Positions 3,815 to 57,579 are shown, counted from the first letter of the stretch. The stretch is 64,000 nt of DNA from Candidatus Rariloculus sp. (GCF_965263005.1 NZ_OZ253579.1:1155668-1219667), one strand, 5' to 3'. Program-made: numbers and translations. Notes: generated by a model not told the origin, from the letters alone.

Positions 3815-4528
3815 ATGATTCTAGCGGCCGGACGGGGTGAGCGAATGGGGACCCTGACGCACAATCGTCCCAAGCCGCTGCTCGAAGTCGGCGCGGAGTC
3901 GCTGATCGAGCGGCACCTCCGACGCCTCTCCGAGTCCGGCACGACGCACGTCGTGATCAACCTGTCGTACCGCGGCGAGCAGATTCGCACGCAGCTCGGC
4001 GACGGGGCGCGCTGGAACCTGAGCATCAACTACAGCGAGGAGGGCGAGCCGCCGCTGGAAACAGGCGGCGGAATCATCAGGGTGCTGCCGCGGCTCGGTC
4101 GCGAGCCTTTTCTCCTGATCAACGCCGACGTGCTCACCGATTTCGACTTCTCGGCACTGCGGCTGGGGGACGCGTCGGGTGTGCTCGTGTTGGCGCCCAA
4201 CCCGGCCTTCCGCACGCACGGGGACTTTGGTCTGGACGAGCGATCGATGGTGACGCAGGCACCGCCAAGCTATACGTTTACCGGCGTTTCCATGCTTGAT
4301 CCGGCGCTGTTCGAGCCATTCGAGCCTGGCCGCCAGCCTCTCAAGCCGATTCTCGATGCAGCGATCGCACGCCGCGCACTCAGGGGCGAGCTCCATGAAG
4401 GATTGTGGCTCGACGTAGGAACACAGGAACGCCTGTACGAGGCGAGGCGCCTGCTCGGCGGGCCTGCTGTCCGGCAGCCCGTGGCGAAAGCCCCGCGTGG
4501 CACCGGGACCGGCGAGGCGCCCGCCTGA
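3815..4528 (+). CDS. murU: N-acetylmuramate alpha-1-phosphate uridylyltransferase (MurU-type nucleotidyltransferase)
   Basis: MILAAGRGERMGTLTHNRPKPLLEVG...GEPPLETGGGI...FLLINADVLTDFDF closely follows the Pseudomonas MurU pattern, and the gene is divergent from lptD as in pseudomonads. ORF 3689..4528 was trimmed to the Met before the G-rich NTP loop; 3791 is an alternative start. The last roughly 17 codons and the stop lie inside repeat copy A. Confidence 0.8.
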   Translation: MILAAGRGERMGTLTHNRPKPLLEVGAESLIERHLRRLSESGTTHVVINLSYRGEQIRTQLGDGARWNLSINYSEEGEPPLETGGGIIRVLPRLGREPFLLINADVLTDFDFSALRLGDASGVLVLAPNPAFRTHGDFGLDERSMVTQAPPSYTFTGVSMLDPALFEPFEPGRQPLKPILDAAIARRALRGELHEGLWLDVGTQERLYEARRLLGGPAVRQPVAKAPRGTGTGEAPA

Positions 4529-4668
4529 CAAGGCGCGAGGAGTGAGAATATTGGACATATTCGAACGACGAGCAACGCAGCTCAGGCGGGATGCATCGCC
4601 GGTTGATCAGCCGTCTTCGGCGAGGCGGTCTGCCGCCCCATGCAGCGGGGCTTTTGCCACGGGCTGCT
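4474..4668 (-). repeat. Palindromic MITE/REP-like element, copy A (long form, about 195 bp)
   Basis: Its termini are GCAGCCCGTGGCGAAAGCCCCGC and GCGGGGCTTTTGCCACGGGCTGCT, which are inverted. The core is GAGAATATTGGACATATTCGAAC. It aligns along its whole length with the copies at 14183, 25018 and 26683. Confidence 0.9.
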
Positions 4669-4702
4669 AGTGTACCGTCCCGGGTTTTTTGGAGAACCGT
4701 CA

Positions 4703-5350
4703 GTGGCTCTAAGGCTCTACACCTACTTTCGCAGCTCCGCCGCGTTTCGAGTGCGCATCGCGCTCAATCTCAAGGGCCTCGAGTACGAGCCCGTACCCGT
4801 GCATTTTTCGCGCGGCGGCGGGGAGCATCGCAAGCCGGAATTCGCGAGCCTGAATCCGCAGGGTTTGCTGCCCGTGCTGGATCACGACGGCACGGTCCTG
4901 ACGCAGTCGCTCGCGATCATCGAGTACCTCGATGCCTGTTTTCCGGAGCCGGGACTGATCCCCGCAGGCCCCGTCGAGCGGGCGCGCGTTCAGGCGCTTG
5001 CGCAGCTTATCGCCTGCGAGACTCATCCGCTCAACAACCTCAGAGTGTTGCGCTATCTGCGCGGCGAGTTCGATCTCGCTGAGCCGGACATCGAGCGCTG
5101 GTACCGGCACTGGGTAGCGGAGTCCTTTCGCGCGCTCGAAACTTTGCTCGTCAGGTACAGCGGCGGGCAGTACTGCTACGGCGATGCGGTCGGCCTGGCC
5201 GATGTCTGCCTCGTCCCGCAGGTCTACAACGCGAGGCGGTTCGGCTGCGAGCTCGATGCCTACCCGACGCTGACTCGAATCGCCGACACGCTTGCCGGGC
5301 AGGCGGCGTTCGCGCGGGCCGCCCCCGAGAACCAACCCGACGCCGAATAG
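4703..5350 (+). CDS. maiA: maleylacetoacetate isomerase (zeta-class glutathione S-transferase)
   Basis: A GTG start at 4703 is preceded by GGAGA. The sequence LRLYTYFRSSAAFRVRIALNLKGLEYEPVPVHF...NPQGLLPVL...LAIIEYLD matches the GST-zeta/MaiA signature (SSxxxRVRIAL). Confidence 0.85.
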   Translation: MALRLYTYFRSSAAFRVRIALNLKGLEYEPVPVHFSRGGGEHRKPEFASLNPQGLLPVLDHDGTVLTQSLAIIEYLDACFPEPGLIPAGPVERARVQALAQLIACETHPLNNLRVLRYLRGEFDLAEPDIERWYRHWVAESFRALETLLVRYSGGQYCYGDAVGLADVCLVPQVYNARRFGCELDAYPTLTRIADTLAGQAAFARAAPENQPDAE

Positions 5351-5477
5351 GCGTTGGGCAACGCGGCCGGTGCGGGACCAAACGCCGCCGGCGGATGCGG
5401 CCGGCGGCGCCGTCCGATAGGCTGCTCGCCGCCCGGTTTCGGGAGCTTCACTGAGCGCGCACCGTCCCGAATCGGGA

Positions 5478-6290
5478 TCAGTGGGTCATCGCGTAGATCA
5501 GGTAGTTGACGGCGAATCGGTAGGCCAGCGCCGTCATCGGTTCCGGGTAACGTGGATCGTCGGCGTGCTCCCAGGCATCGCCCAGATCCATGTTGTGATT
5601 GATCGCGACCATGAGCCGGCCGTCGTCATCGTAGACACCGCGCCAGTGCGGTGTGACTCCGTCGCGCTCGTAGGTCACGCCGTACGACAGCGCCGCAATA
5701 CCGGGAATCTGGATGCGCTGATCGAGATCGTAGAGCACGTGCAGCACTTCATCGTTCTCGGGAATGTCGATGATCGGGCGGTCGGGAAACACGCGGGTCA
5801 TCGACTCCATGAAGCCAGCCCATTCGTAGCTGCCGTGGAAATCGTCGACCATGAGGAATCCGCCGCGCAGGAGATATTCCCTGAGCCGCGCGGCCTCGAT
5901 CTCGTTCAGGTACCAGCGGCCGACCTCGACCGCATAGAGCCACGGGTAGTCGAAAATCGCGTCGTCGGTCAGTCCGATGATGCGGCTTTCGTTACGATCG
6001 CTCGCCTCCACCCGGGTCAGGCGTGTCACGCCCTGAAGAAAGTGTGTCTCGGCTTCAGGCCAGTCAACTTCCCAGCTTCCCCTGTAGCCGAAGCCGCCGC
6101 CGCGGTCGGAGTAGAGCAATCTGGTGAAATGAAACTCGGCCGTCGGCCGCTCGGCGCTGTAGGCGTATTCGTCGCCGCGGGCCGCAAGCCCAAGCCCAAG
6201 CGCAAGCGCAAGCGCGATCAGCGCCGTTGCCGCCAAGGCGAGGATCAAGCGCGCCGAAGCCATGCCCGTGTGTTCATTTCGCCGATTCAT
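5478..6290 (-). CDS. DUF4159 domain-containing membrane-anchored protein
   Basis: ORF 5478..6590 was trimmed to Met 101 (6263 is an alternative start). It has an N-terminal TM (LILALAATALIALALALGLGLAA). The block FHFTRLLYSD...WEVDWPEAETHFLQGVTRLT...FDYPWLYAVEVGRW...GGFLMVDDFHG is typical of DUF4159, a family usually linked to MoxR/DUF58/VWA clusters. Confidence 0.8.
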   Translation of the reverse strand: MNRRNEHTGMASARLILALAATALIALALALGLGLAARGDEYAYSAERPTAEFHFTRLLYSDRGGGFGYRGSWEVDWPEAETHFLQGVTRLTRVEASDRNESRIIGLTDDAIFDYPWLYAVEVGRWYLNEIEAARLREYLLRGGFLMVDDFHGSYEWAGFMESMTRVFPDRPIIDIPENDEVLHVLYDLDQRIQIPGIAALSYGVTYERDGVTPHWRGVYDDDGRLMVAINHNMDLGDAWEHADDPRYPEPMTALAYRFAVNYLIYAMTH

Positions 6291-6408
6291 GTTCCGAGTC
6301 CGTCTGCCGCATGTTCCGCTTTGGCCGCCTCGTGCGCAAGTCTGCCGGGATTCGGCCCGGCCGCGCCCCCGTGGCAGTCGATCGCGCGGCCCGGGAGATG
6401 CGGTGGCT

Positions 6409-6648
6409 TCACCGGCTCTGCGGCTCCGATAACCACTCGTCGAGCGCACCGGTTGCGAGTTCCTCGATCGTATACTCGTTGAACGTCCTGTAGGCGGTCC
6501 AGTGGCTGATCTTGTCCTGCAGCTCGAGTTCCTGCCAGCCCGATGCCGCGCCGAGCCGATCCGTGTAGGCAGCGAGCCTGGTCGCGGCATATTCGTTACA
6601 GTGGGCCAGAAACGCGGCCACGAGCGTCTTTTTTTCCTGCACAGTCAT
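6409..6648 (-). CDS. small hypothetical protein (79 aa)
   Basis: This is the internal Met of ORF 6409..6762 (MTVQEKKTLVAAFLAHCNEY...). It is preceded by a good SD (GAGGAA, 5 nt spacer), has a coding-like composition and lies upstream of the DUF4159 gene on the same strand. I recognise no family. Confidence 0.5.
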   Translation of the reverse strand: MTVQEKKTLVAAFLAHCNEYAATRLAAYTDRLGAASGWQELELQDKISHWTAYRTFNEYTIEELATGALDEWLSEPQSR

Positions 6649-6660
6649 CTTGTTCCTCGA

Positions 6661-6756
6661 TCGTTCGGTCGACCACACCGTCGATAGCCGGCACGGCCAT
6701 GAGTGCGGCGACGATGCTATTATGCTCGCGTGGTGGCACTTCGTTCGGTCGATAGC
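6661..6756. promoter_or_regulatory. Pair of exact 12-bp direct repeats (TCGTTCGGTCGA, each followed by TCGATAGC) in the divergent promoter region
   Basis: TCGTTCGGTCGA occurs at 6661-6672 and 6741-6752. TCGATAGC follows at 6681-6688 and 6749-6756. Both lie in the 165-bp gap between the small ORF (minus strand) and the VWA operon (plus strand). Confidence 0.3.
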
Positions 6757-6813
6757 TGTCACATTACTCTAACGTAACGGTCACACGAATCGCCAAGCGA
6801 TCAAGGGCAGTCC

Positions 6814-9950: not shown

Positions 9951-9954
9951 ACCG

Positions 9955-12212: not shown

Positions 12213-12216
<4 letters not shown>
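9955..12216 (+). CDS. TPR-repeat protein with HExxH (peptidase MA-like) domain
   Basis: ORF 9697..12216 was trimmed to MRLKARYLWLALAVAAPQSHA (signal peptide). TPR-like repeats lie on both sides of WHEIAHVFTLEATDHLVPRWFSEGVSVYEE (HEIAH at 11224-11238), which is a gluzincin-type HExxH...E arrangement. Confidence 0.8.
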
Positions 12217-13262
<1,046 letters not shown>

Positions 13263-13270
13263 CGGCGGCG

Positions 13271-14182: not shown

Positions 14183-14344
14183 AGCAGCCCGTGGCAAAAG
14201 CCCCGCTGCATTCCACCGGCGATGCATCCCGCCTGAGCTGCGTTGCTCGTCGCTCGAATATGTCCAATATTCTCGCTCCTCGCGCCTTGTCAGGCGGGCG
14301 CCTCGCCGGTCTCGGTGCGACGCGGGGTTCTGCCACGGGCTGCT
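14183..14344 (+). repeat. Palindromic MITE/REP-like element, copy B (short form, about 162 bp), inside the MoxR operon
   Basis: It reads AGCAGCCCGTGGCAAAAGCCCCGCTGCAT...CGAATATGTCCAATATTCTCG...GCGGGGTTCTGCCACGGGCTGCT. It fills most of the 192-bp gap between the DUF58 and BatA-like genes. Confidence 0.9.
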
Positions 14345-14371: not shown

Positions 14372-16372
14372 ATGACCCTGCTTGCACCGGCGTTCCTGCT
14401 CGGACTGCTGGCGATCGGGCTGCCGATCTGGCTGCATCGGCTGTCGTCAGAGAACCCGAATCGGCAACCGTTCAGCTCGCTGATGTTTCTTGAAGCCGGT
14501 GAACCGCGCCGCGTACTGGCCAAGAACCTGCAGTATCTGTTGTTGTTGGCGTTGCGCATCGGAGTCCTGGCACTGCTCGCGCTCGCCTTCGCTCACCCCG
14601 CGTTGTGGCGAGAGCCGAGCGCGGCCTCGGGCGGCACGGCACAAATCCAGATCATCGTGCTCGATGCATCGGCCTCTATGTCGTACGGCGACCGCTGGGA
14701 GCGTGCGCAAAGCGCTGCACTTGATCTGATCGGGACGTTCGCGCCTGAAGACAGAGCGCAGCTCGTTTACGGCGGGCGCGTGACCGAGCTGCTCACGGGC
14801 CAGACCGTCGATCGGGCAGTGCTTCGCCAAGGCATCGCGACGGCGGCGCCAGGTGTGTTCTTCGTCGACTACGGGCAGCTCGCGCGCACGCTCGACGGCG
14901 TTTTGCGCGGCGCAGAGCTTCCGGTCGTGCTCCATTTGATCACTGACGGCCAACAGAGCGCGCTGCCGACGAGGTTCGCGGAGCTTGCGCCGACGCAGCT
15001 CGCGGAGCTTCGGATCCACAACATCGCCGTCGCCGGGGAAGGCAATTGGGGCGTCGACAGCCTCGTGGGCTCGGCCCTGACTGGCGAGGTTCAGGCGAGT
15101 GTGCGCAGCTTCTCATCGAGTCCGATCGACAAGACGCTGCTTCTTGCACTCAACGGCCGGCAGATCGATGAGCGGCGGCTCGAGATCGAGCCCGGGGGGC
15201 GCGCCCGGGCCAACTTCGGCGCGCTCGAGCTCGCTTCGGGTGCGAACCGGGTGAGTGTCTCGCTGACTCCGGGCGACGGCATGGCCCAGGACGACACGCG
15301 AATCATCGCGCTCAAGCGGGCTGAGCCGAGACCTGTTCTGCTCGTGTCCGGCGATCTCAGGATGCGCGACACGCTGTTCGTCGCATCGGCGTTGGAATCG
15401 CTGTCGGGGCTTGCGCTCGTCGCCAACACGGTGGCGGCGGCGGAACTCGGTGAACAGACGCTTGCCGATTACCACTTCGTTGTCGTCGCCGACGCCGGCG
15501 CGCTCGGCGCTGCGCAGGTTCAACAGCTCGAGGATTACGTTGTGTCGGGCGGCGCGCTGCTGATGGCTCTCGGACCGCGCTCGGCCGCGCAAAGTGCGGT
15601 GCCGCTGACGGGCCAGCAGTTCGAGTCGGACACGGGGGCGCTGCTCGGCGGCTCCGACGACTACGCTTCGATCGGCGCGCTCGACGCTACCCACCCGGCG
15701 CTGCAGGGCGTGGAGATGCTTCGTGCAGCGAGGTTCTTCCGCCATACGGCGATCGCGGCCGCAGCCGAGGACCAGGTGTTGATGCGCCTCGACACCGGCT
15801 CACCTTTACTATTGGAACGCGAACTCGGTGAGGGGCGCGTGTTGGTGTTCACATCGTCGCTCGACCGAGCATGGAACGATCTGCCCGTGCAGCCCGTGTT
15901 CGTGCCGCTCCTCGCCGGTGTCGCGAATCATCTGCTCGGCGGCGCCGGGTTCAGCAGTGAACGAGGCCTCGGCAGCACGCTGGCGCTCAGGGCCATGGGT
16001 CTTCGCGGCGGGCAGATTTTCGACCCGGACGGCGATGCCGCTCTCGGCCTCGGCGGCGGAACCGACGACGTGTTGCTCGATCAGATCGGATTCTACGAGA
16101 TCACCTCGGGCGGCAGCACCGATTTGGTGGCGGTGAATTTCGACATCAGGGAGTCGGACCTGACGACGATCGACGCGGCAACGATCGAGCGCTGGCAGGC
16201 TCTCGGCCGCCGCGGCGCTGAGCAGTCCGCGGCGGGCGCGGTGTCCGAGGATCGGGCGCCGGTGCTGGCATCGCTGGCGCAATTGATATTGATTGTGCTG
16301 CTCGTTGCCGTAATCATGGAATCCTGGGTTGGAAACTGGCATCTTAGGGTGCGACGAGGGATGGCTGGATGA
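14372..16372 (+). CDS. BatA-N-terminal-domain / VWA-domain membrane protein
   Basis: ORF 14243..16372 was trimmed to the Met outside the repeat. MTLLAPAFLLGLLAIGLPIWLHR is the aerotolerance-regulator (BatA) N-terminal double-TM signature. The MIDAS motif is IIVLDASASMSYGD, and a C-terminal TM is present (LILIVLLVAVIMESW). Confidence 0.85.
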   Translation: MTLLAPAFLLGLLAIGLPIWLHRLSSENPNRQPFSSLMFLEAGEPRRVLAKNLQYLLLLALRIGVLALLALAFAHPALWREPSAASGGTAQIQIIVLDASASMSYGDRWERAQSAALDLIGTFAPEDRAQLVYGGRVTELLTGQTVDRAVLRQGIATAAPGVFFVDYGQLARTLDGVLRGAELPVVLHLITDGQQSALPTRFAELAPTQLAELRIHNIAVAGEGNWGVDSLVGSALTGEVQASVRSFSSSPIDKTLLLALNGRQIDERRLEIEPGGRARANFGALELASGANRVSVSLTPGDGMAQDDTRIIALKRAEPRPVLLVSGDLRMRDTLFVASALESLSGLALVANTVAAAELGEQTLADYHFVVVADAGALGAAQVQQLEDYVVSGGALLMALGPRSAAQSAVPLTGQQFESDTGALLGGSDDYASIGALDATHPALQGVEMLRAARFFRHTAIAAAAEDQVLMRLDTGSPLLLERELGEGRVLVFTSSLDRAWNDLPVQPVFVPLLAGVANHLLGGAGFSSERGLGSTLALRAMGLRGGQIFDPDGDAALGLGGGTDDVLLDQIGFYEITSGGSTDLVAVNFDIRESDLTTIDAATIERWQALGRRGAEQSAAGAVSEDRAPVLASLAQLILIVLLVAVIMESWVGNWHLRVRRGMAG

Positions 16373-25017: not shown

Positions 25018-25213
25018 AGCAGCCCGTGGCAAAAGCCCCGCTGCATGGGGCGGAAGACCGCCTCGCCGAAGACGTCTGATCAACCGGCGATGCATCCCGG
25101 CTGAGCTGCGTTGCTCGTCGCTCAAGTATGTTCAATATTCTTACTCCTCGCGCCTTGTCAGGCGGGCGCCTCGCCGGTCTCGGTGCAACGCGGGGGATTT
25201 GCCACGGGTTGCT
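25018..25213 (+). repeat. Palindromic MITE/REP-like element, copy C (long form, about 196 bp)
   Basis: It reads AGCAGCCCGTGGCAAAAGCCCCGCTGCATGGGGCGGAAGACCGCCTCGCCGAAGACG...CAAGTATGTTCAATATTCTTAC...GCGGGGGATTTGCCACGGGTTGCT. It lies in the divergent promoter gap between the M20 and NHL genes. Confidence 0.9.
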
Positions 25214-25442
25214 GGATGAGCTGATACGATGCCGGCATGATCGTGCCCCACCCTTTACGGGTTGGCAAGCTGGTTGCAACGAAGCGGGAAGGACCGTCCC
25301 TTGAGGCACGCAGTTCCTGTGCAGGCGGAATGCCGTTAACATGAAGCACGGCCGTTCCTGCCAGCAGTGTGTCTCGCCCGGTCCTTTTCGGGAGCGGGCG
25401 AGACAGGTGCTCGACCGGCGCACACACAAGAAGGGGGATGGT

Positions 25443-26651: not shown

Positions 26652-26682
26652 CAAAGCCCCCGGTACGGCGCGGAAGGGGCTG

Positions 26683-26843
26683 GCAGCCCATGGCGAAAGC
26701 CCCTCTGCATTCGACCCGCGATGCGGCCCGGACCACCGCGTCGCTCGTCGGTCGAATATGCCCGGTTCTCTCACTCCTCGCGCCTTGCCGGCCGGGCGCC
26801 CGGCCGGTCTTGGTGTGACGCGGGACTCTTGTCACGGGCTGGC
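26683..26843 (+). repeat. Palindromic MITE/REP-like element, copy D (short, more diverged)
   Basis: It reads GCAGCCCATGGCGAAAGCCCCTCTGCAT...CGAATATGCCCGGTTCTCTCAC...GCGGGACTCTTGTCACGGGCTGG and aligns end to end with copy B. Confidence 0.85.
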
Positions 26844-26932
26844 AGGCTTGGCACGGGTCCGGTCCACGATGGAATCGCGCTCGCATTCCGCTCCGCGGAC
26901 GTTTATATTTCTTCCCGAATGGAGGAAAGGTA

Positions 26933-27556
26933 ATGGCGACGAGCATTGCGCTCCAAACCCTGTCGGCAAACGAGGCCGCCTGCGTTACCGGCATTCCCCT
27001 GAAACAGGTGCACCGCATCATCGACACCGGCCTGTTGGGGAGCGCCGCAAAAAACCGCAAAGGCTCCCGCGTTGTTCTTCGCGGCGGCCTGGTGGGTCTG
27101 AAGCTCGCTTACGAGACGACGGACATCCTCACCCTCGATGGACGTCGGCGACTCGTGCGCTATCTTCTCGACCATCCGCGGGCTACGGCGGCGCGCGAGA
27201 GCAACGTGTCCGTCAACGTACAGCCCATGAAGGGTGAAGTACGAAAAGGGTTGTCCATGCTTGCAAGGGCCAGAAAAATGATCGCGGCCGACAAGGGCAT
27301 ATTGTCCGGGACCGCGTGCATCAAGGGAACGCGCGTTCCCGCTCACGACATTGCCGAAATGCTCGCCAATGGCGACAGCGTTCGGGCCATCCGGAAGGCT
27401 TATCCTGCGCTCACCGACGCGCAGATCGAGGCAGCGGCCCTCTACGCACGGGCCTACCCCCGCCGTGGCCGTCCCCGCCGCGGACCCTCTTGGCGCGACC
27501 GCAAGCAGATCGTCTCGAACGAGGCCGCGTTTGACGAGTTGCCTCTATCCCGTTGA
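26933..27556 (+). CDS. DUF433 domain-containing protein (antitoxin-like, HTH N-terminus)
   Basis: The SD is GGAGGAAAGG. The C-terminal sequence ILSGTACIKGTRVPAHDIAEMLANGDSVRAIRKAYPALTDAQIEAAALYA is the DUF433 pattern. The N-terminus is MerR-like (ANEAACVTGIPLKQVHRII). Confidence 0.75.
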   Translation: MATSIALQTLSANEAACVTGIPLKQVHRIIDTGLLGSAAKNRKGSRVVLRGGLVGLKLAYETTDILTLDGRRRLVRYLLDHPRATAARESNVSVNVQPMKGEVRKGLSMLARARKMIAADKGILSGTACIKGTRVPAHDIAEMLANGDSVRAIRKAYPALTDAQIEAAALYARAYPRRGRPRRGPSWRDRKQIVSNEAAFDELPLSR

Positions 27557-27678
27557 AATTCCTGATTGACGAATGTCTGAGCCCCGCGCCCGCGGTCATC
27601 GCCCGAAATCGGGGGTTCCCGCAATCCACGCACGTGTGGTCAGCGACAATTAAAACTTTCATTTTGATTGCACTGTAG
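27553..27678 (+). pseudogene. truncated DUF5615 / PIN-like toxin gene (only about 29 N-terminal codons retained)
   Basis: The TTG overlaps the DUF433 stop (TTGA). LKFLIDECLSPAPAVIARNRGFPQSTHVW matches the M(K/R)FLxDENLxxxLxxxLxxxGhxxxHV start of DUF5615 proteins. The sequence then becomes AT-rich and stops after 41 codons, whereas family members are about 110-120 aa. Confidence 0.45.
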
Positions 27679-27849
27679 ACGAGACGATCCATTCGGTCCG
27701 CGGCTCTGCACGAGGTACGTCTTGCGCCCCATGCAATAGAGCCGCACCCCGAGGCCCGGCAGGCCCCGATCCCAAAACACGAGGTGCTTGCCATCGGCAA
27801 ACAACGCATCCACCATGCGGTTGGAAATTCTGTAAGACTGTCGTCGAGG
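27679..27849 (-). pseudogene. tyrosine integrase fragment (N-terminal Arm/DUF4102-type domain only)
   Basis: Within ORF 27640..27978, RISNRMVDALFADGKHLVFWDRGLPGLGVRLYCMGRKTYLVQSRGPNGSSR matches the xFWDxxLxGFGVRVxxSGxKxYxVQxR motif of phage/ICE integrase N-termini. The catalytic domain is absent and there is no convincing start codon. Confidence 0.55.
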
Positions 27850-28146
27850 CAAGGAACCATCAGCGTCTCGATGGATTTTCGGTCTCCGAAAAGAATAAGC
27901 GAAACGCAAGCGAGTAAACTCAAAAGCCGAGGCATATTGAAGCGCAACCGGGATCGGAATGAAGCGCCAGACCGCCATGAAATGGGCTTTAAGTTAATTA
28001 ATATCAAAGAATAAGCGTAATTCCGGGTACTTCTAGCGTGACCATGACGGTAAGCCAGAAATCCATATACTGATTTGGCCCCTTTTCAGTTTCACGTCGG
28101 CAGCACGGCAGTTTTGGATGGCTCCAGCAACAGGTAGGGACGATTC

Positions 28147-32736: not shown

Positions 32737-32749
32737 CGGGCGGCAGTCT

Positions 32750-32853
32750 AGCACCCCGTGGCAAGAGTCCCGCTGCATGGGGCGGAAGACCGCCTTGCCG
32801 GCCGGGCGCCTCGCCGGTCTCGGTGCGACGCGGGACTTTCGCCACGGGGTGCT
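32750..32853 (+). repeat. Palindromic MITE/REP-like element, copy E (internally deleted, about 104 bp)
   Basis: It reads AGCACCCCGTGGCAAGAGTCCCGCTGCATGGGGCGGAAGACCGCCTTGCCGGCCGGGCGCCTCGCCGGTCTCGGTGCGACGCGGGACTTTCGCCACGGGGTGCT. Both termini are present, but the central GAATAT...AATATTC core is missing. Confidence 0.8.
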
Positions 32854-32920
32854 GCCCCGGGAGAGGTCGAACCAGTGGATGCTCCGTTGCCGGGAACCCC
32901 TGGTCGGCCCGATCAGCGCA

Positions 32921-35408: not shown

Positions 35409-36398
35409 ATGAATGTCTATGAGGTTGTACGGGGCAGCACAAGCATAGATGGCCTGCGGCGCGCCGAAAGGGTGCGGCCGGCGCCCGGACCGTCCGAAGT
35501 GCTCGTTCGCGTGCGGGCCGCATCGCTCAATTTTCGCGATATAGCGATCGTCAGGGGCAAATACATCGGCGGACCGCTGACTCACGACACGATCCCGTTG
35601 TCCGACGGCGCCGGCGAGGTCGAAGCGGTCGGCGCGGGTGTGGATGAGTTCGCCGTCGGCGATCGCGTCGTCGCGACGTTCGCGCAAGGGCGCCCGCCTG
35701 CCGCTCTCGGCTCGCCGCTCGACGGCATGTTGACCGAGTACATTTGCCTGAACGTGGATGGTCTGCTCCGAGTTCCTGCCGGGTTGTCGTACGAGGAAGC
35801 AGCCACGCTGCCGTGCGCGGGTGTGACGGCATGGAACGCACTGACCGAGGGCAAGGCTGTCCGCCCCGGAGACACCGTGCTGACGCTGGGCACAGGCGGC
35901 GTTTCGCTGTTTGCGCTGCAGATCGCCAAGACTGCCGGTGCGCGCGTGATCATCACGTCCTCGAGCGATGAAAAGCTTGAGCGGGCGAGGGCGCTCGGCG
36001 CAGACGAGACGATCAACTACAAGCGCGAGCCTGCCTGGGAACGCGCCGTGCTCGAACTCACCGACGGACTGGGCGCGGACCATGTCGTCGAGCTTGGAGG
36101 CTCCGGCACGCTGCCTCACTCCTACCGGGCCGTCGGCCCGCGCGGCGAGATTTCACTGATCGGGGTGATGACGCTGCCCGAAGGCGACCTGAGCCCGCAC
36201 GCGATGATGTTCAAGGGCGCCACGATGCGAGGCATTTTCGTCGGCGACAAGCATCTGTTCATCGGCCTGAACAAGGCGATCGCCGTCAATGGCCTGAAGC
36301 CGGTCATCGACACCGTCTTCGAGTTCGATGCCGCCGTCGAGGCGTATCGATACCTCCGGTCCGCCAAGCACTTCGGCAAGGTCGTGATCAGGATCTAG
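35409..36398 (+). CDS. NADPH:quinone oxidoreductase / zinc-type alcohol dehydrogenase superfamily (MDR) protein
   Basis: It has a GroES-like N-domain (PGPSEVLVRVRAASLNFRD), a Rossmann block (GDTVLTLGTGGVSLFALQIAKTAGARVI) and the C-terminal sequence KHFGKVVIRI. Confidence 0.85.
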   Translation: MNVYEVVRGSTSIDGLRRAERVRPAPGPSEVLVRVRAASLNFRDIAIVRGKYIGGPLTHDTIPLSDGAGEVEAVGAGVDEFAVGDRVVATFAQGRPPAALGSPLDGMLTEYICLNVDGLLRVPAGLSYEEAATLPCAGVTAWNALTEGKAVRPGDTVLTLGTGGVSLFALQIAKTAGARVIITSSSDEKLERARALGADETINYKREPAWERAVLELTDGLGADHVVELGGSGTLPHSYRAVGPRGEISLIGVMTLPEGDLSPHAMMFKGATMRGIFVGDKHLFIGLNKAIAVNGLKPVIDTVFEFDAAVEAYRYLRSAKHFGKVVIRI

Positions 36399-36440
36399 CA
36401 GCTCGCGGCTGCGGTTCCGCGTCGCGCAGAGAGCGGCGCA

Positions 36441-36463
36441 GCGTTAGCCACGGGCTGCTAGCG
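36441..36463. repeat. Solo terminal fragment of the MITE/REP-like element
   Basis: GCGTTAGCCACGGGCTGCTAGCG matches only the element terminus (..GCCACGGGCTGCT) and has no body. It lies between two convergent genes. Confidence 0.4.
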
Positions 36464-39975: not shown

Positions 39976-41001
39976 ATGATCAATGCCGGCATTGTAGGTC
40001 TCGGATGGTGGGGCAGGACTCTGGTGGAGGCGGTGTCGGGTCAAAGCGACACGATGCGCTTCGTCGCCGGCGCTACGCGCACGGTCACGTCCGACGTCGA
40101 GCGCTTCGCAGGCGAGCACGATTTCGCGCTCAAGGAGAGCTATGACGATTTGTTGGCGGATCCGAACGTCGATGCCGTCGTGCTCGCGACGCCGCATTCG
40201 ATGCACGTCAAACAGGCCGTCGCTGCCGCCGCCCGGGGCAAGCACATCTTCTGCGAGAAGCCGTTCGCGCTTACCCGGGCCGGCGCCGAGGAGGCTGTCG
40301 ACGCGGTCCGTCGGGCTGGCGTCACGCTTGGGCTCGGCTATAACCGCCGTTGGCATCCGGAAATGATTGCGCTGCGCGAGCGCATCGCGTCGGGCGATCT
40401 CGGTGTCGTTTTGCACATCGAGGCGACGATGACGTTCCCGAACGCGCTCTTTCTGAAGCCTGAGGCGTGGCGTGCGAACAGGGAGGAGACGCCTTGCGGG
40501 GGCTTGACGCCGATGGGCGTGCACGCCGTCGACGGCATGATAGACCTCTGCGGGGAGGTCGAAGAGGTCTATTGCCAGAGTTTTCGCCGCGCCGTAGAGG
40601 TCGATGCCGACGACACGACGTCGATCCTGTTCAGAATGAAGGACGGCATGTCAGGCTATCTCGGTACCATGACGGCGACCGGCGGCGGCTTCAGCTTCCA
40701 GGTCTATGGATCGAAGGGCTTCGTCCGGCTCGAGGGTATGACGCACGTCGCAGGCGCACCTTCGGAGGAGCGGCGTACGCGGTTGTTCGGAAACTGTATC
40801 TTCAAGCCGGCAAAAGGTCCGGCGGAGATGTGGCAGGCCGAGCCCTGCGATGTCAGCCGCGCGGCGCTGGAATCGTTCGCGCTCGCGGCGCAAGGCGAAC
40901 AGCCGTTCCTGATCCCCACCGACGAAATGATCCACGGGGCAGCCGTGACGGAGGCCATCATCAAGTCGGCCGCGTCGCACCAGGTCACCAAGGTGAGCTG
41001 A
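39976..41001 (+). CDS. Gfo/Idh/MocA-family oxidoreductase
   Basis: The Rossmann start is INAGIVGLGWWG. VDAVVLATPHSMH...AAAARGKHIFCEKP is the family EKP motif. Confidence 0.85.
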   Translation: MINAGIVGLGWWGRTLVEAVSGQSDTMRFVAGATRTVTSDVERFAGEHDFALKESYDDLLADPNVDAVVLATPHSMHVKQAVAAAARGKHIFCEKPFALTRAGAEEAVDAVRRAGVTLGLGYNRRWHPEMIALRERIASGDLGVVLHIEATMTFPNALFLKPEAWRANREETPCGGLTPMGVHAVDGMIDLCGEVEEVYCQSFRRAVEVDADDTTSILFRMKDGMSGYLGTMTATGGGFSFQVYGSKGFVRLEGMTHVAGAPSEERRTRLFGNCIFKPAKGPAEMWQAEPCDVSRAALESFALAAQGEQPFLIPTDEMIHGAAVTEAIIKSAASHQVTKVS

Positions 41002-41054
41002 GCCGTCCGCGGAGCCAGACCGGGAATTCGAACAAACAAGCAAGGAGACTGACC

Positions 41055-41957
41055 ATGTATGTGCTACGCCATTCTTACCTGCCGCTCGCCCTTTTGCTTG
41101 CCGCGTCCGCGGCAGCACAGCCGAACTTCGAAGAGCAGATCGCAGTAACCGAAGTCACATCGCAGCAACTCGGCGAGGGCTTGCATGTGCTGTTCGGCGT
41201 CGGCGGAGCGATCGCGGCCTCGATCGGCGATCAGGGCGTGCTGATCGTTGACGATCAGTTTCCGGGAATGGTGCCGAAGATCAGGGCGAAAGTGCGCGAA
41301 CTCGGCGGCGGGGACATCGATTTTGCGATCAACACGCATTTTCACTTCGATCATGCCGACGGCAACCTGGTCCTCGGGCCGGAAGGCACGTGGCTCGTCT
41401 CGCAGGAGAACTCCCGCGAGAAGCTCACCGGGGACAACGTCATCAATCTCGTCAACCAGACCATCGATCAACCCGCCTATCCGGACGACGCCTTGCCCTC
41501 GATCACGTTCGAGCGGCATATGCGGTTTCATTTCAACGGTGAGCCGATCGACCTGCTGCATTTCGGGCCGGCGCATACGGAGGGCGACGCTGCTGTCGTC
41601 TTTCGAGGACACAACGCCGTGCACATGGGCGACGTGTTCAACAACGCGGGCTATCCGTTCATCGACGCCGATAACGGCGGAAGTCTTGCCGGCATCATCG
41701 CGTTTTGCCAAGGCGTGCTCGAGGAGATCGACGCGAACACGGTCGTCGTCCCGGGCCACGGAGCGATCGCCGACAGCGCGGCGCTCGAGGACTACGTCAG
41801 CATGCTGAGCACGATCCACGATCGTATCGCGGCGCTGATTACGAGCGGCGCGTCGCTCGAGCAGGTTGTCGCCGCGAGACCTACGGCGGAGTGGGACGAG
41901 GAGCGCGGCGATCCGGCGAGCTTCCTGAATCGTTCGTATACGAGCATGACGCGCTAG
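41055..41957 (+). CDS. secreted MBL-fold metallo-hydrolase
   Basis: ORF 40467..41957 was trimmed to the Met after the SD AAGGAGA. The signal peptide is LPLALLLAASAAAQP. The metal motifs are INTHFHFDHADGN and a later PGHG. Confidence 0.85.
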   Translation: MYVLRHSYLPLALLLAASAAAQPNFEEQIAVTEVTSQQLGEGLHVLFGVGGAIAASIGDQGVLIVDDQFPGMVPKIRAKVRELGGGDIDFAINTHFHFDHADGNLVLGPEGTWLVSQENSREKLTGDNVINLVNQTIDQPAYPDDALPSITFERHMRFHFNGEPIDLLHFGPAHTEGDAAVVFRGHNAVHMGDVFNNAGYPFIDADNGGSLAGIIAFCQGVLEEIDANTVVVPGHGAIADSAALEDYVSMLSTIHDRIAALITSGASLEQVVAARPTAEWDEERGDPASFLNRSYTSMTR

Positions 41958-42136
41958 CGACTTGCACCGCAGAAAATCGCGATAGCAAATCAGCAGCCTG
42001 ACGTCCTGCGGCGCAGGCTTCTGAGGAGCGACGCTGGGCGGGCGCGCGCAAGCCGCTTCAGCTCGGTGCATGCTCTTCGCGAACGACCAGTGCAACGCCC
42101 ACCGCCCGGAGCATGGCGGCCGCCAGACCTGGTTGA

Positions 42137-46933: not shown

Positions 46934-47320
46934 ATGACGCCAACCGAATGGCTCGATGCCTATCGCAAAGCTTGGGTCGAGCGTGACGCAGATGCTGCGG
47001 CGGAACTGTTCACCCAGGACGCGACGTACGCCGAGCAACCCTACCAGGACGCGTTTGTCGGTCGTCGCGGCATCCACGAATATTGGGCGCGTGTGACCGC
47101 GGCTCAAGCCAACGTCGAGATTCGCTACGGCACGCCGATCACAGTCGGCGACCGCACGGCCGTGGAATGGTGGACAACGCTGACGAACGACGTCGTGCCG
47201 ATCACGCTCGCAGGCGCATTTATTCTCACTTTCGATGCGTCCGGGCTCTGCCGCACGTTGCGCGAGTACTGGAGCTTCGCCGAAGGGACGAAGCAACCGA
47301 AGAGCGGCTGGGGATCCTGA
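46934..47320 (+). CDS. SnoaL-like / NTF2-fold protein
   Basis: ORF 46880..47320 was trimmed to MTPTEWLDAYRKAWVERDADAAAELFTQDATY, a typical SnoaL-like opening. The length is 128 aa. Confidence 0.7.
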   Translation: MTPTEWLDAYRKAWVERDADAAAELFTQDATYAEQPYQDAFVGRRGIHEYWARVTAAQANVEIRYGTPITVGDRTAVEWWTTLTNDVVPITLAGAFILTFDASGLCRTLREYWSFAEGTKQPKSGWGS

Positions 47321-47351
47321 CAACCGGGGCTCCAATCCCCGTGGGGATGCC
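47321..47351 (+). repeat. Degenerate direct copy of the tRNA-Glu 3' end (att-like islet boundary)
   Basis: caaccggggCtcCaatccccgtggggaTgcc at 47321-47351 matches caaccggggTtcGaatccccgtggggaCgcc at 45397-45427 at 28 of 31 positions. Confidence 0.8.
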
Positions 47352-48000: not shown

Positions 48001-48029
48001 CACAATTGAGCCAAAAGGTTGCCCGAGCC

Positions 48030-52164: not shown

Positions 52165-52202
52165 CGCCGCTGCCGTTTGGCATTGCACCGGGAGGTGAGT
52201 CG

Positions 52203-53576: not shown

Positions 53577-53612
53577 CGCCGGCCCTCCGGTCTGTTTTCG
53601 CGCGCTTCTTGT

Positions 53613-55358
53613 TCAGGCTTCGAGCGCTCTTCGAATCTTGTCGTGCTCGCTGCTGAGTTCAGGCGGCAGCCGGTCGCCGAAGCTTGCAAGGTATTGGCCG
53701 ATATCGTCGAGCTCGGCACGCCACTGCGCGCTATCGACGCTCAGCAATTGCCGCAGCGTGTCTTCGGACACGTCGATCCCGGTGACATCGAGATCGCCGG
53801 GACGGGGCAGGTAGCCGATCGGCAGCTCGTCGGCGCCGATCCGGCCCGCGCAGCGCTCGATGATCCAGCGCAGCACGCGCAGGTTCTCGCCGAAGCCTGG
53901 CCACAGGAACCTGCCGCCGCTGTCGCGCCTGAACCAGTTGACTTGAAAAACCTTGGGCAGGCGGTCGGAGCGGTTCGCGAAACTGAGCCAGTGAGCCCAG
54001 TAGTCGCCATAGTTGTAGCCGCAGAATGGCTTCATGGCCATCGGATCGCGCCTGACGACGCCGACCTGACCCGTGGCCGCGGCGGTGGTTTCCGACGCGA
54101 CGCCCGCACCGACGAGCACCCCGTGCGCCCAGTCCCTGGCCTGAAAGACCAGCGGTGCCAGTTCGCTGCGGCGGCCGCCGAACACGACCGCCGAGATCGG
54201 CACGCCTTCCGGCGCATCGGCCAGCTCCGAGTAACACGGATTCTGCTTCGCCGAGACCGTGAACCGCGAGTTTGGATGAGCGGCCGGCCCGTTGGCCCTT
54301 TCGTACGGCTTGCCGACCCAGTCGAGCACGGGTTCGCCGGTTTCCCTGCCTTCCCACCAAGGCTGGTTATCGGCCGTGACCGCGACGTTCGTGAAAATCG
54401 TATCCGCTTCGATCATGTCGTAAGCGTTGGGATTGGTCTTGCGATTCGTGCCCGGCACGACTCCGAAATAGCCGGCCTCGGGGTTGATTGCGCGAAGCTG
54501 TCCCGAGCCGTCGAGATGCATCCAGGCGATGTCGTCGCCGAGCGTCCAGACCTTCCAGTCCTCGTAGCCCTCGGGAGGGATCAGCATTGCAAGGTTGGTC
54601 TTGCCGCACTGGGAAGGGAACGCGCAGGCCAGGTAGTGCGTTTCCCCCGCGGGACTCTGGATGCCGACGATCAGCATGTGCTCGGCAAGCCAGCCCTCCG
54701 AGCGGCCCTGATAGCTCGCGATTCTGAGCGCGTGGCATTTCTTGCCGAGTAGCGCGTTGCCGCCATACCCTGAGCCGTAGCTCATGATTGTGATCTCTTC
54801 GGGGAAGTGAACGATGTAGCGGCGCTCCGGATCAAGCTCGCCCGTCGAGTGCAGACCCTGCACGAAGTTGCCGTCGCGCTCGATACGCTTGAGCGCCGCG
54901 TCACCCATGCGCGTCATCAGATACATGTTGGCGACGACGTAGGGACTGTCCGTGATCTCTACGCCGCAACGGGCGTAAGGCGAGTCGAGCGGCCCCATGC
55001 AGTAAGGGATCACGTACATCGTGCGCCCGCGCATGCAAGTGCTGAAACATTCGCGCATCATGCGCTTCGCGTCGTCGGGAGATTTCCAGTTGTTGTTCGG
55101 ACCCGCATCGTCCGCATTGCTCGTACACACGAACGTCAGATGCTCGACGCGCGCGACGTCCAGCGGGTCCGAACGGTGCAGATAGCAACCGGGGTAGTGT
55201 TGCTGATTGAGCTCGATCAGCGTGCCGTCGCCGAGCATCTGCTCGATGAGCTGCCGGTATTCCTGCTCGCTACCCGAGCACCAGTGAATCCGGTCGGGCC
55301 GCGTAAGCTCGGCGACCTTGCGGACCCATTCATCGAGGGATTTAAGTTGAGTCGTCAC
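53613..55358 (-). CDS. pckG: phosphoenolpyruvate carboxykinase (GTP)
   Basis: ORF 53613..55598 was trimmed to a GTG (VTTQLKSLDEWVRKV...). The blocks YVIPYCMGP, FPSQCGKTNLAML, LGDDIAWM and WEG are GTP-PEPCK signatures. The start has no obvious SD, so it is the least certain part of the call. Confidence 0.88.
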   Translation of the reverse strand: MTTQLKSLDEWVRKVAELTRPDRIHWCSGSEQEYRQLIEQMLGDGTLIELNQQHYPGCYLHRSDPLDVARVEHLTFVCTSNADDAGPNNNWKSPDDAKRMMRECFSTCMRGRTMYVIPYCMGPLDSPYARCGVEITDSPYVVANMYLMTRMGDAALKRIERDGNFVQGLHSTGELDPERRYIVHFPEEITIMSYGSGYGGNALLGKKCHALRIASYQGRSEGWLAEHMLIVGIQSPAGETHYLACAFPSQCGKTNLAMLIPPEGYEDWKVWTLGDDIAWMHLDGSGQLRAINPEAGYFGVVPGTNRKTNPNAYDMIEADTIFTNVAVTADNQPWWEGRETGEPVLDWVGKPYERANGPAAHPNSRFTVSAKQNPCYSELADAPEGVPISAVVFGGRRSELAPLVFQARDWAHGVLVGAGVASETTAAATGQVGVVRRDPMAMKPFCGYNYGDYWAHWLSFANRSDRLPKVFQVNWFRRDSGGRFLWPGFGENLRVLRWIIERCAGRIGADELPIGYLPRPGDLDVTGIDVSEDTLRQLLSVDSAQWRAELDDIGQYLASFGDRLPPELSSEHDKIRRALEA

Positions 55359-55519
55359 GGATAGGATGAAATCAGTGTTTTCGAAGCGTGACAGTATACC
55401 CAGCCAGCATTGCCAAAGGGAGCCGAAGCGCTTGGGCGGTAGCGGGAACACGGTCAATTTCGTGCCGGGACAGGGATTTCGAGATCCTCCGGCACGCCGT
55501 ATCAGGCTATAGTTGCCCG

Positions 55520-57421
55520 ATGCCGTTGCTCGCGGAGGTTTTCGGTCCGGGCGGTAGCCTGTCGGCCCGCTTGCCCGGGTATACATACCGGGAAGCACAA
55601 CAGCGAATGGCCGAGCTCGTCCGTCAGGCGATAGACGACGGCAGGCACGCCGCGCTCGAAGCCGGGACCGGCATCGGCAAGACTTACGCCTATCTCGTAC
55701 CCGTACTGCTGTCCGGCCGTCGGGTGATCATCTCCACGGGCACGCGGACGTTGCAGGACCAATTGTTCAGCCGCGATTTGCCGTCACTGGGAGCCGTGCT
55801 CGGACGGCCGGTCGAAGTGGCGCTGCTCAAGGGCCGGAGCAATTACCTGTGTTGGCAGCGGTGCGAAACAGCGCGTCTGGACGGCCGCAACATGTTGTCG
55901 GCTGGCATGCTCGAGACGCTGTCGGCCTGGGGCCAATCGAGCGTGAGCGGCGACTTGGCCGAGCTCGACGAGCTGGCCGGCGAGCACGCGCTGCGCGGCC
56001 TGATCACCTCGACCGCCGACAACTGCCTCGGCAGCCGATGTCAGTTCCTCGACCGGTGCTTCGTCGCCGATGCGAGGCGCAAGGCGCTGGCTGCCCAGGT
56101 CGTCATCGTGAATCACCATCTGCTGCTTGCGGACCTCGCGCTCAAGGAAGCCGGTTTCGGCGATCTGCTGCCCGGCGCCGACGTGATCGTCGTCGACGAG
56201 GCGCACCAGTTCCCTGACGTCGCGCAGCGCGTCTTCGGGGTATCGATTACCAGCCGGGAGCTTGAATCGTTACTGCGTGACGTCGTGCGCGAAGGGAACG
56301 CCGCCGGCGTCGGCGGGCAGGCCGGTGACGCGGTGTCAGCACTTTCGAACGAGCTCGCCGAAGCGCGCATCGGCGCGGCCGGGGCGCCGGGGCGCTACGC
56401 CTGGGAGGCTGGGCCGCAAAAACTCGTGAGCTCGCTGGCGGGAGTGCGGCGGGCGTTGGCCGAGGCCGGCCAGGCGCTCGAGGTCATCGAATCGGCCACC
56501 GCGGGACTCGGCCGCTGCCGTGAGCGCTGCGAGGAAGTGTTGCGCCGGCTGGACACAGTCACGGCAGACGCTTCTACCGATGGGCTGCGCTGGCTTGAAA
56601 CGTCGGCGAAGTCCTTCGCCGTGCACTGGACGCCGCTCGACATTGGAGCTGCCCTCGCCGAGCGTGTTGCCGATCAGGCAGGCGTCTGGGTCTTTACGTC
56701 GGCAACACTCGCGGTCGGTGACGATTTCACGCATTTTCTTGCACACGTCGGGATCGACGATGCGCTCACGAGCACGCTGCCGAGCCCGTTCGACTATGCG
56801 GCAAACGGGCGGATTTACCTGCCGCGGGGATTGCCCGAACCCGGCGAGCCCGACCACGTCGCGGCACTCATGGAGGATGTCTGGCCGCTCATTGAAGCCG
56901 CGGGCGGCGGGGCGTTTCTCCTATTTACGAGCTATCGCGCACTCAACCTCGCGCGGGACTGGCTGGAGCCACGTTCGGCCCCCGGGCCGGTCCTGGTCCA
57001 GGGCGCCGGCTCGCGCAGCCAGCAGCTCGAGCAGTTTCGCGCTGCAGGCAATGCGCTGCTGCTCGGCACGAACAGCTTTTGGCAGGGAGTGGACGTGCGC
57101 GGCCGCGCATTGCGCATCGTCGTGATCGACAAGCTGCCGTTCGCAGCGCCCAACGATCCGTTGATCCAGGCCCGGATCGAAGCGGTCCGCCGCAATGGTG
57201 GGGATCCGTTCACCGAATTCCAGTTGCCCCAGGCCTTGCTCGCGCTCAAACAGGGCGCCGGTCGACTGATTCGCGATTTCGATGACCGCGGGCTCATCGT
57301 ACTCGGCGATCCGAGGCTGAGGACCCGATCGTACGGCCGCGCGTTTCTCGACAGCATGCCGCCGATGCCGTTGCTCGAGGATCGGGAATCTGCGCTCGAG
57401 TTTGCCGGGAGCCTGCGCTAG
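55520..57421 (+). CDS. ATP-dependent DNA helicase, DinG/YoaA (Rad3-like, Fe-S) family
   Basis: ORF 55388..57421 was trimmed to MPLLAEVF. Walker A is EAGTGIGKT and the DEAH box is VVDEAHQF. Cys residues are spaced as in the Fe-S cluster domain (CWQRC...C...C). The C-terminal helicase motifs are TSATL and QGxGRLIR. Confidence 0.85.
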   Translation: MPLLAEVFGPGGSLSARLPGYTYREAQQRMAELVRQAIDDGRHAALEAGTGIGKTYAYLVPVLLSGRRVIISTGTRTLQDQLFSRDLPSLGAVLGRPVEVALLKGRSNYLCWQRCETARLDGRNMLSAGMLETLSAWGQSSVSGDLAELDELAGEHALRGLITSTADNCLGSRCQFLDRCFVADARRKALAAQVVIVNHHLLLADLALKEAGFGDLLPGADVIVVDEAHQFPDVAQRVFGVSITSRELESLLRDVVREGNAAGVGGQAGDAVSALSNELAEARIGAAGAPGRYAWEAGPQKLVSSLAGVRRALAEAGQALEVIESATAGLGRCRERCEEVLRRLDTVTADASTDGLRWLETSAKSFAVHWTPLDIGAALAERVADQAGVWVFTSATLAVGDDFTHFLAHVGIDDALTSTLPSPFDYAANGRIYLPRGLPEPGEPDHVAALMEDVWPLIEAAGGGAFLLFTSYRALNLARDWLEPRSAPGPVLVQGAGSRSQQLEQFRAAGNALLLGTNSFWQGVDVRGRALRIVVIDKLPFAAPNDPLIQARIEAVRRNGGDPFTEFQLPQALLALKQGAGRLIRDFDDRGLIVLGDPRLRTRSYGRAFLDSMPPMPLLEDRESALEFAGSLR

Positions 57422-57464
57422 TGTCCTGTCCCGCAACCAGCATCGCATACAGAGTGAGCGGAAC

Positions 57465-57579
57465 GCGTCAGTACAAGGCGCGCTCCGCGGGCAGCATCGG
57501 GCATATTCGAGCGACGAACGGCACAGTCAGCCAGGATGCATCGTCGATCGAATGCAGCGGAGCTTTCGCCACGGGCCGC
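57465..57579 (-). repeat. Partial, degenerate MITE/REP-like element, copy G
   Basis: ACAAGGCGCG...CATATTCGAGCGACGAACGGCACAGTCAGCCAGGATGCATCG...ATGCAGCGGAGCTTTCGCCACGGGCCGCT aligns with the right half of copy A. Weaker similarity may extend left to about 57420. Confidence 0.65.

Follow-up and report, generated by a model that had tools for sequence, protein, structure and literature searches.

A probable nonautonomous MITE family sharing its ends with an IS1182/IS5-type insertion sequence in Candidatus Rariloculus and distant bacterial lineages

Correia elements of Neisseria and ERIC elements of Enterobacteria are about 100 to 160 bp long, have inverted ends, form long hairpins, lie next to genes, and are cotranscribed with them; there are also shorter forms with internal deletions, and promoters are present in some copies. 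Repetitive extragenic palindromic (REP) sequences and bacterial interspersed mosaic elements (BIMEs) are imperfect palindromes of 20 to 40 bp, often clustered in mosaic arrays and linked to REP-associated tyrosine transposases (RAYTs). Among MITEs (miniature inverted-repeat transposable elements), the type II MITEs of the IS5 family include BrickBuilt, MITE293, and MITE700 of Porphyromonas gingivalis and the Neisseria ATR element, for which ISNme1 is the proposed parent (PMC4596501). For IS5 itself, duplication of CTAG has been reported (PMC10379815). Here, we analyzed a 64,000-nucleotide stretch of DNA from Candidatus Rariloculus sp. (NZ_OZ253579.1, positions 1155668 to 1219667; called the window below), in which a preliminary description had noticed an interspersed palindromic element of MITE or REP-like kind.

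The element is very probably a nonautonomous MITE that shares only its ends, about 19 bp, with an insertion sequence (IS) of the IS1182/IS5 type, targets CTAG or YTAR sites, and has spread horizontally. Its identification as a MITE is borne out by the lack of coding capacity, the terminal inverted repeats, the target-site flanks, the existence of filled and empty sites, and ends matching those of a transposase-encoding IS. The family seems to be undescribed, although of an ordinary bacterial MITE kind; the literature on sponge-symbiont MITEs, Rariloculus, and CTAG-targeting IS1182-type MITEs did not yield a description of it. The interest of the family rests on its targeting of CTAG and stop codons, its strong fold-back covariation, and its distribution among symbionts of several phyla.

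Shared ends and target sites

We built a hidden Markov model on four window copies and searched with it by nhmmer. The 27-nt left terminus was also scanned against one genome per species and matched at least 116 stretches; fetched genome loci are labeled with L numbers (L004, L057, L123, and so on). Across the listed loci and the window, nhmmer gave 162 nonoverlapping matches, 107 of them full length, with a modal length of 159 to 162 bp and a tail reaching 473 bp. The further copies that the preliminary description had proposed to seek thus exist in many other genomes, and this refutes its alternative of similarity limited to chance GC-rich motifs. Such a resemblance, or an assembly artifact, might be suspected from the GC-rich composition alone (64% GC), but it is almost certainly not the explanation, given full-length E values of 1e-43 to 1e-51, many independent assemblies (chromosome-level ones included), and sharp boundaries. 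Outside the repeats, the window and the fetched loci did not overlap. At the gathering score, Rfam found three tRNAs in the window and nothing on the element, which thus matches no Rfam family at that score.

The inverted termini, GCAGCCCGTGGC...GCCACGGGCTGC, are as the preliminary description had them. Pairs 3 to 12 with 170 to 179 are kept in 77 to 80 of 80 copies, the exception being column 6/176, paired in 39 of the 80. To delimit the element, 141 left-type and 89 right-type ends were aligned on the core. The information content is about 2 bits within the element and about 0.1 bit at position -4, and between them lie three biased flank positions, -3, -2, and -1, with C in 72%, T in 79%, and A in 78% (both ends). 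The commonest layout, CTA-GCAG...CTGC-TAG, is found in 39 of 132 copies.

We then looked for an autonomous element by its paired termini. A 12-mer with two mismatches was too noisy, and the search was continued with TA-flanked pairs 0.8 to 2.6 kb apart. The sole real IS among the paired termini occupies positions 3996 to 5462 of L057 (1,467 bp), on the Vicinamibacterales chromosome that is richest in copies among the matches listed. Its ends read CTA-GCAGCCCGTGGTGAAAGTC...CTGCCACGGGCTGC-TAG (also written GCAGCCCGTGGTGAAAGTCCCCC...CCCCTTCTGCCACGGGCTGC), and its one open reading frame (ORF), of 456 amino acids (aa), contains the Pfam domains DUF772 and DDE_Tnp_1. A metagenome scan with this protein gave more than 555 relatives, the best 80 of which (61 to 95% aa identity) were examined. 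In 69 of these 80, both ends are present 1,437 to 1,557 bp apart, nearly all as ctaGCAGCCCGTGGTGAAAGTC...CCACGGGCTGCtag, giving a partner IS of 1.45 to 1.55 kb. The 4-mers that flank these IS copies are CTAG/CTAG in 56 cases, CTAA/CTAA in 3, and TTAG/TTAG in 2. The terminal 19 nt or so (GCAGCCCGTGGYRAAAG) are common to MITE and IS, and the interiors are unrelated. In NCBIfam, the L057 transposase scores best with IS1182 (NF033551; 165.6 bits versus a cutoff of 270), followed by IS5_4 (87 versus 140), and it is below the cutoff in all IS5 models. An exact cluster lookup of this transposase returned no match.

Four other paired termini were rejected as IS candidates (L042 3487 to 5355, L076 3229 to 4370, L052 274 to 1444, and L004 2216 to 3947), each being an ordinary gene between inverted MITE copies. 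These pairs have CTA...TAG at their outer ends and bracket a single gene, which could make the brackets movable as composite transposons.

The duplicated target is most likely 4 bp long and of YTAR type, as for IS5, judging from the flanks. Since CTAG is palindromic, duplications of 2 bp (TA) and 4 bp (CTAG) are indistinguishable at consensus sites. In all 9 MITE cases in which the base adjoining the element departs from G on the left or C on the right, the opposite flank has that base too, as a 4-bp duplication predicts; the matched nonconsensus 4-mers are ATAG/ATAG (twice), CTAT/CTAT (twice), ATAT/ATAT, CTAA/CTAA, and GTAG/GTAG. The flanks taken by themselves also suggested a MITE of the IS630/Tc1-mariner type, like the Correia elements of Neisseria, in which only TA would be duplicated and the element would truly start with the G and end with the C. 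In 58 of 132 copies, TA adjoins GCAG...CTGC on both sides; the outer flank base frequently varies on its own (CTA..TAA five times, TTA..TAG three times); and in 14 copies the mismatch is confined to the outer base of the 4-mer; moreover, the empty site of the window copy at 32751 has TA at its junction. This alternative is weakened by the transposase family and the matching 4-mers: the sole IS with matching ends encodes a DUF772 plus DDE_Tnp_1 protein (IS5/IS1182 type), and TA-only duplication does not predict the matched inner bases, either in the 9 of 9 MITE cases or in the CTAA/CTAA and TTAG/TTAG copies of the IS. We regard an IS630-type origin as improbable.

Under the favored reading, an IS1182/IS5-type transposase acting in trans would bind both ends of the MITE. 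Insertion would take place at palindromic CTAG, or loosely YTAR, and the flanks show that it is accompanied by a duplication; with 4 bp duplicated, the element proper would be CAGCCCGTGG...CCACGGGCTG. The availability of a matching IS makes this mechanism directly testable.

Several points weigh against this reading. The length of the duplication (4 versus 2 bp) is not fully settled: besides the 14 MITE copies, several IS copies are mismatched at the outer base of the 4-mer alone, whereas no MITE copy (0) is mismatched at the inner base alone, an asymmetry between the two positions. The window copies at 14184 and 25019 are flanked by GA...TG, and the empty sites of relatives show no clean duplication there because their intergenic DNA is too diverged to resolve one. 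The label IS1182/IS5 is approximate, as the scores lie under the curated NCBIfam cutoffs. When this transposase was sought in the window and the other fetched genome DNA (about 1 Mb), it was found at L057 only, and a partner IS in the window's own genome is therefore hypothetical. Finally, transposition is deduced from the flanks and from the comparison of filled with empty sites, not seen directly.

Copies in the window and empty sites in relatives

Syntenic relatives of the window (L117 to L124 and L205 to L207) contain no family copy over 21 kb each, and the window has five. The segments that the window and L123 share in blastn are 75 to 86% identical at the nucleotide level, and the DUF58 protein of L205 to L207 is 91 to 92% identical. 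At the 32751 copy, relatives read CAGTT-TA-GCTCGC or CAGTG-TA-GCTCGC versus CAGTC-TA-GCACCCCGTGG in the window, which places TA exactly at the empty-site junction. The gap between the DUF58 and BatA genes measures 193 bp in the window, where it holds the 14184 copy, and 30 bp in L205 to L207, where it is empty. The site of the 25019 copy is empty in L117, L119, L121, and L123, and the region of the 26683 copy spans 1,485 bp in the window versus 113 bp in L123. The CTAG located 3' of the NTP_transferase gene is empty in L205; the window carries the window family there, and L206 and L207 carry a different MITE family.

This second MITE family is unrelated to the first; it has the ends GGAGCCTGCGCCG(C/T)AGGAA, inserts at CTAG or TTAG, and forms clean filled and empty pairs in the relatives (L051 1675 to 1864 versus L101 at about 1273; L206 and L207 at about 2019 to 2180 versus L205, at the CTAG of the 4474 copy). 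The window has a degenerate copy (about 65 bp, 41958 to 42022) after the TAG stop of the ORF at 40467 to 41957. Other differences between the window and its relatives were also seen. To the right of the 32751 copy, about 850 bp including a 231-aa ORF of two relatives is gone (window 32853 to 32920 versus L123 15905 to 16762), which suggests an element-associated deletion. The stretch at 26652 to 28136 holds about 1.4 kb that is extra relative to the relatives, carrying the 26683 copy and an ORF with a DUF433 domain (26933 to 27556). In L124, positions 14855 to 15955 of the syntenic stretch from DctM to Na_sulph_symp contain a Transposase_31 (PF04754) gene and other insertions, so the region varies among relatives for reasons beyond the MITE of the window family.

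Direct reading recovered every copy of the preliminary description, at the same position or a few bases off. Its tally of at least five full and two or three partial copies needs revision: four copies are full (two of about 160 bp and two of about 194 bp), and the rest comprise one internally deleted, one truncated, and one 61-bp mini copy. The short-form copy at 14184 to 14343 (plus strand, 160 bp; nhmmer 14183 to 14343, E = 7.6e-51) was also recognized by its hairpin and lies within an operon, between its DUF58 and BatA genes. The two long-form copies are at 4474 to 4667 (minus strand, 194 bp; nhmmer 4474 to 4668, E = 7.7e-50), with TAG following at 4668 to 4670, and at 25019 to 25212 (plus strand; nhmmer 25018 to 25212, E = 2e-50), in the divergent gap between an M20 peptidase gene (minus) and an NHL-repeat gene (plus). 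Repeat detection gave 92% complementarity over 199 nt between 4470 to 4668 and 25018 to 25216 and 96% over 116 nt between 4491 to 4606 and 14212 to 14327. The extra segment of the long forms, put at about 30 bp in the preliminary description, is present, with a length of 33 nt (GGGGCGGAAGACCGCCTCGCCGAAGACGTCTGA); it lies at 25047 to 25079 (plus strand, alignment columns 42 to 74) and at 4607 to 4639 (minus strand), is placed after GCTGCAT, has a remnant in the 32751 copy, and among all fetched DNA is found in the window only.

The second short-form copy, at 26683 to 26842 (plus strand; nhmmer 26683 to 26841, E = 5.3e-43), is located 3' of the NHL-repeat gene and is diverged (78% identity to the 14183 copy). 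It adjoins a relic of an older copy at 26843 to 26862 (GCAGGCTTGGCACGGGTCC), and L123 has the same relic (GCAGGAGGTTTGCGCCACGGGTGCC) at the corresponding position. In the internally deleted copy, at 32751 to 32852 (plus strand; nhmmer 32791 to 32852, E = 7e-11), the left end and the start of the insert are joined to the right arm; its CTA flank is at 32748 to 32750. The truncated copy, at 57473 to 57579 (minus strand; nhmmer and alignment, model positions 2 to 108, E = 8.3e-18), has lost its right arm and lies 3' of a DinG-like helicase gene (ORF 55388 to 57421, by Pfam). What had been taken for a solo terminus at 36441 to 36463 is the right part of the mini copy at 36398 to 36458 (minus strand), which has both termini and the usual flanks, CTA-GCAGCTCGCGGC...GCCACGGGCTGC-TAG. 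The left TAG of this copy (36396 to 36398) is the stop codon of the ORF at 35409 to 36398.

The MITE has no conserved ORF, and the ORFs that overlap its copies are spurious or read through from neighboring genes, in agreement with the preliminary description; the peptides quoted there, MSNILAPRALSGGRLAG and PVAKAPLH, come straight from translating the element. One case of readthrough concerns the NTP_transferase ORF (3689 to 4528, by Pfam), which lacks the TGA kept by relatives and runs 55 nt into the 4474 copy. With this TGA lost, the copy provides the last 18 codons and the stop. For annotation, the family thus seeds spurious ORFs, lengthens real ones (NTP_transferase), and widens gaps within operons (DUF58-BatA), and a model of it would tidy gene calls in many uncultured symbiont genomes.

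Placement at gene ends and folding

Genes were called by GC content at the three codon positions, and the calls were checked against Pfam-supported genes. In line with the placement first noted in the window, 104 of the 107 full copies fall outside the cores of genes. By kind of intergenic gap, of which there are four, the counts are 27, 24, 22, and 22 copies (background of 210, 217, 124, and 122), and avoidance of divergent gaps, which contain promoters, is not seen (22 of 95). The copies show no bias in their orientation to the flanking genes (22 copies in the same and 29 in the opposite orientation; 11/11 in convergent gaps). In 984 kb of fetched genome loci and window, CTAG was observed 277 times versus 2,966 expected from base composition (9%), and stop codons make up 23% of the free CTAG sites. 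For 30 of 132 MITE copies (23%), a called gene uses the boundary TAG as its stop codon; stop usage in the genes called in these 984 kb is TGA 416, TAG 248, and TAA 49.

The gene-end and intergenic placement is explained by the targeting of CTAG and TAG stops together with the loss of coding insertions. CTAG is depleted about 10-fold in these GC-rich genomes, with many of the remaining sites lying in TAG stops and intergenic DNA. Insertions into coding DNA would presumably be purged by selection, letting copies build up at gene ends and in gaps in either orientation, and an insertion into a stop codon would remake the stop. As target choice and the loss of coding insertions suffice, a function at gene ends need not be assumed, and the family exemplifies clearly how a distribution at gene ends is accounted for by target specificity alone.

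As the preliminary description had proposed, the whole element can fold into one long hairpin. The short form reaches -98.1 kcal/mol, versus -64.5 ± 3.6 for shuffled sequences (z = -9.4). When the fold of the 14183 copy was mapped onto 80 aligned short copies, 89.4% of cells were paired (83.2% in shuffles), and 25 of 59 pairs had changes on both sides (e.g., column 35/144, with GC 28, CG 19, UA 18, and AU 9). Cells with both-side changes number 281, versus 94 ± 7 in shuffles and 12 to 39 in slid controls; among related copies, however, shared descent or template switching from arm to arm can inflate such a compensatory signal and mimic selection. Selection on the fold is therefore likely but not proven. 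The imperfectly palindromic interior would probably fold back on itself, as DNA or as RNA, and so help to bring the ends together, or it may be tolerated in transcripts.

The two strands differ in folding: the reverse complement folds better in 80 of 80 copies (-96.7 versus -83.6 kcal/mol). A sigma-70-like motif (CTGACA, 16 nt, CATATT or AATATT) occurs on the minus strand of the element in 28 of the 80 short copies and on the other strand in none (e.g., window 14293 to 14266 and 25161 to 25134). It points out through the left terminus and adjoins the most conserved internal block, CGCCTTG. We treat the strand difference and this motif as leads only.

A long hairpin with strong compensatory change, an intergenic or gene-end location, and a strand that always folds better could also belong to a REP- or BIME-like element moved by a RAYT (Y1) or to an ERIC-like hairpin with an RNA role, such as mRNA stabilization or processing, the similarity to IS ends then being incidental. 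We consider this very unlikely. The unit is about 160 bp long and dispersed singly, and it has true inverted repeats whose terminal 19 nt or so match the IS in 69 of the best 80 relatives, unlike clustered palindromes of 20 to 40 bp; the term REP-like in the preliminary description is thus unsupported. The conserved CTAG flanks, the lack of orientation bias, and the use of divergent gaps do not fit this reading either. The element contains no terminator-like T run, and a permissive Rfam search with one copy gave chance matches only, to long microRNA precursor hairpins (E = 0.17 to 0.38; the best, MIR918, at 20 bits versus 268).

Hosts, spread, and relation to known elements

The window itself is gammaproteobacterial. 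Its glutamate-tRNA ligase (GltX) and that of Candidatus Rariloculus sp., encoded on a 4.25-Mb contig, are 100% identical, with further matches at 70 to 75% labeled Gammaproteobacteria; the lineage of Candidatus Rariloculus is Gammaproteobacteria, Candidatus Rariloculales; and the PhoR of the window scores above the proteobacterial equivalog cutoff. Most of the other copies among the matches listed are in Acidobacteriota, mainly in uncultured Vicinamibacterales, with others in Bryobacterales, the gammaproteobacterial chromosome OY762933, and Candidatus Palauibacter. Full copies occur in chromosome-level metagenome-assembled genomes (MAGs) of Vicinamibacterales, Bryobacterales, and Gammaproteobacteria, and in one Vicinamibacterales chromosome of 6.4 Mb, the exact 27-nt terminus is present in at least 31 separate blocks of 8 kb. 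The figure of hundreds of copies per genome in the preliminary description is an extrapolation. In Candidatus Palauibacter, the matches listed are mini forms only, of 45 to 65 bp. The taxonomy was checked for the window alone; the MAGs assigned to Acidobacteriota and Gemmatimonadota carry the labels given by their submitters, which counts as a reservation about the cross-phylum distribution.

Mini copies of 45 to 65 bp, with the two termini fused, directly adjoin tRNA genes in two loci (L092 5488 to 5552, from Candidatus Palauibacter, and L005 at about 330 to 391). Vicinamibacterales copies of 200 to 473 bp owe their length to nested short modules after GCTGCAT, namely, a GGGCAACCACAAGGGTTGCCCC hairpin, CCGCGGAATTCTGCG repeats, and GCGGATCGGCGTTGAAGGCCGCCGATCCGC (L028, L052, L058, L059, L088, L102, L106, and L111; e.g., L106 at about 6285 and L059 2837 to 3135). 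These modules sit at the same element position as the 33-nt insert of the window and may form a class of their own, of tiny repeats that move or expand.

Among the matches listed, the 14183 copy is closest to one in OY762933 (93.8% identity), and the best Vicinamibacterales copy is 90.7% identical; Bryobacterales copies group together at 90 to 95%. Mean identity within a genome is between 0.78 (the two short copies of the window) and 0.98; genomes with at least five copies span 0.81 to 0.96. Noncoding DNA that is about 90% identical across phyla calls for horizontal transfer followed by amplification in each lineage. On these identities, horizontal spread appears to be required between Gammaproteobacteria, Acidobacteriota (Vicinamibacterales and Bryobacterales), and Gemmatimonadota (the mini forms of Candidatus Palauibacter). 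As for the vehicle, a blastn search of 72,556 plasmids found no copy of the element, and a scan of the IMG/VR viral contigs found no left terminus; no phage vector is thus evident.

The MAG names (APA, RHO3, and Plut) and the Palauibacter epithets irciniicola, poriticola, and rhopaloidicola hint at sponge and coral hosts, and from these names we infer such hosts. The family also provides a marker by which DNA exchange can be traced among phyla whose record names hint at such hosts. A broader and more tentative proposal, which we think doubtful as a whole, is that a single MITE family has been handed on between phylogenetically distant bacteria of sponge and coral microbiomes and kept there by safe sites at CTAG and TAG stops, with its fold selected and some subfamilies perhaps acting as portable promoters or RNA hairpins. 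If this were true, the family would be a community-wide mobile element specific to a host niche and not a genome-specific repeat.

Compared with the described elements, the window family resembles Correia and ERIC elements in general form. Correia elements duplicate TA, whereas the duplication of the window family appears to be 4 bp. We know of no identified transposase for Correia elements, whereas the window family has a matching IS. Like IS5 of Escherichia coli, this IS encodes a DDE_Tnp_1 transposase and inserts at CTAG, most likely with a 4-bp duplication; unlike in IS5, the transposase has 456 aa and an N-terminal DUF772 domain, and the ends are unrelated to those of IS5. Closer in sequence is an IS on plasmid pLB1 (AB244976, BAF30450.1; annotated as IS5 family), with a transposase 51% identical to that of L057, CTAA/CTAA flanks, and related ends (CAGGCCGTTGACGAAGTC versus CAGCCCGTGGTGAAAGTC). 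The transposases of this IS and of its relatives on Sphingobium, Novosphingobium, and Methylocystis plasmids are 50 to 53% identical to that of L057 over 88% of the length. All of these are distant relatives only, and the MITE of the window family is on no plasmid searched. The type II MITEs of the IS5 family are alike in being short and noncoding, in having only their inverted ends in common with an IS, and in being presumably mobilized in trans (PMC4596501). The duplication of BrickBuilt is variable (PMC4596501), whereas that of the window family is regular (CTAG). The window family further differs from these type II MITEs in its ends (GCAGCCCGTGGYRAAAG), in a partner IS whose best score is for IS1182 and not for a classical IS5 group, in its long, covarying palindromic interior, and in its uncultured hosts from more than one phylum.

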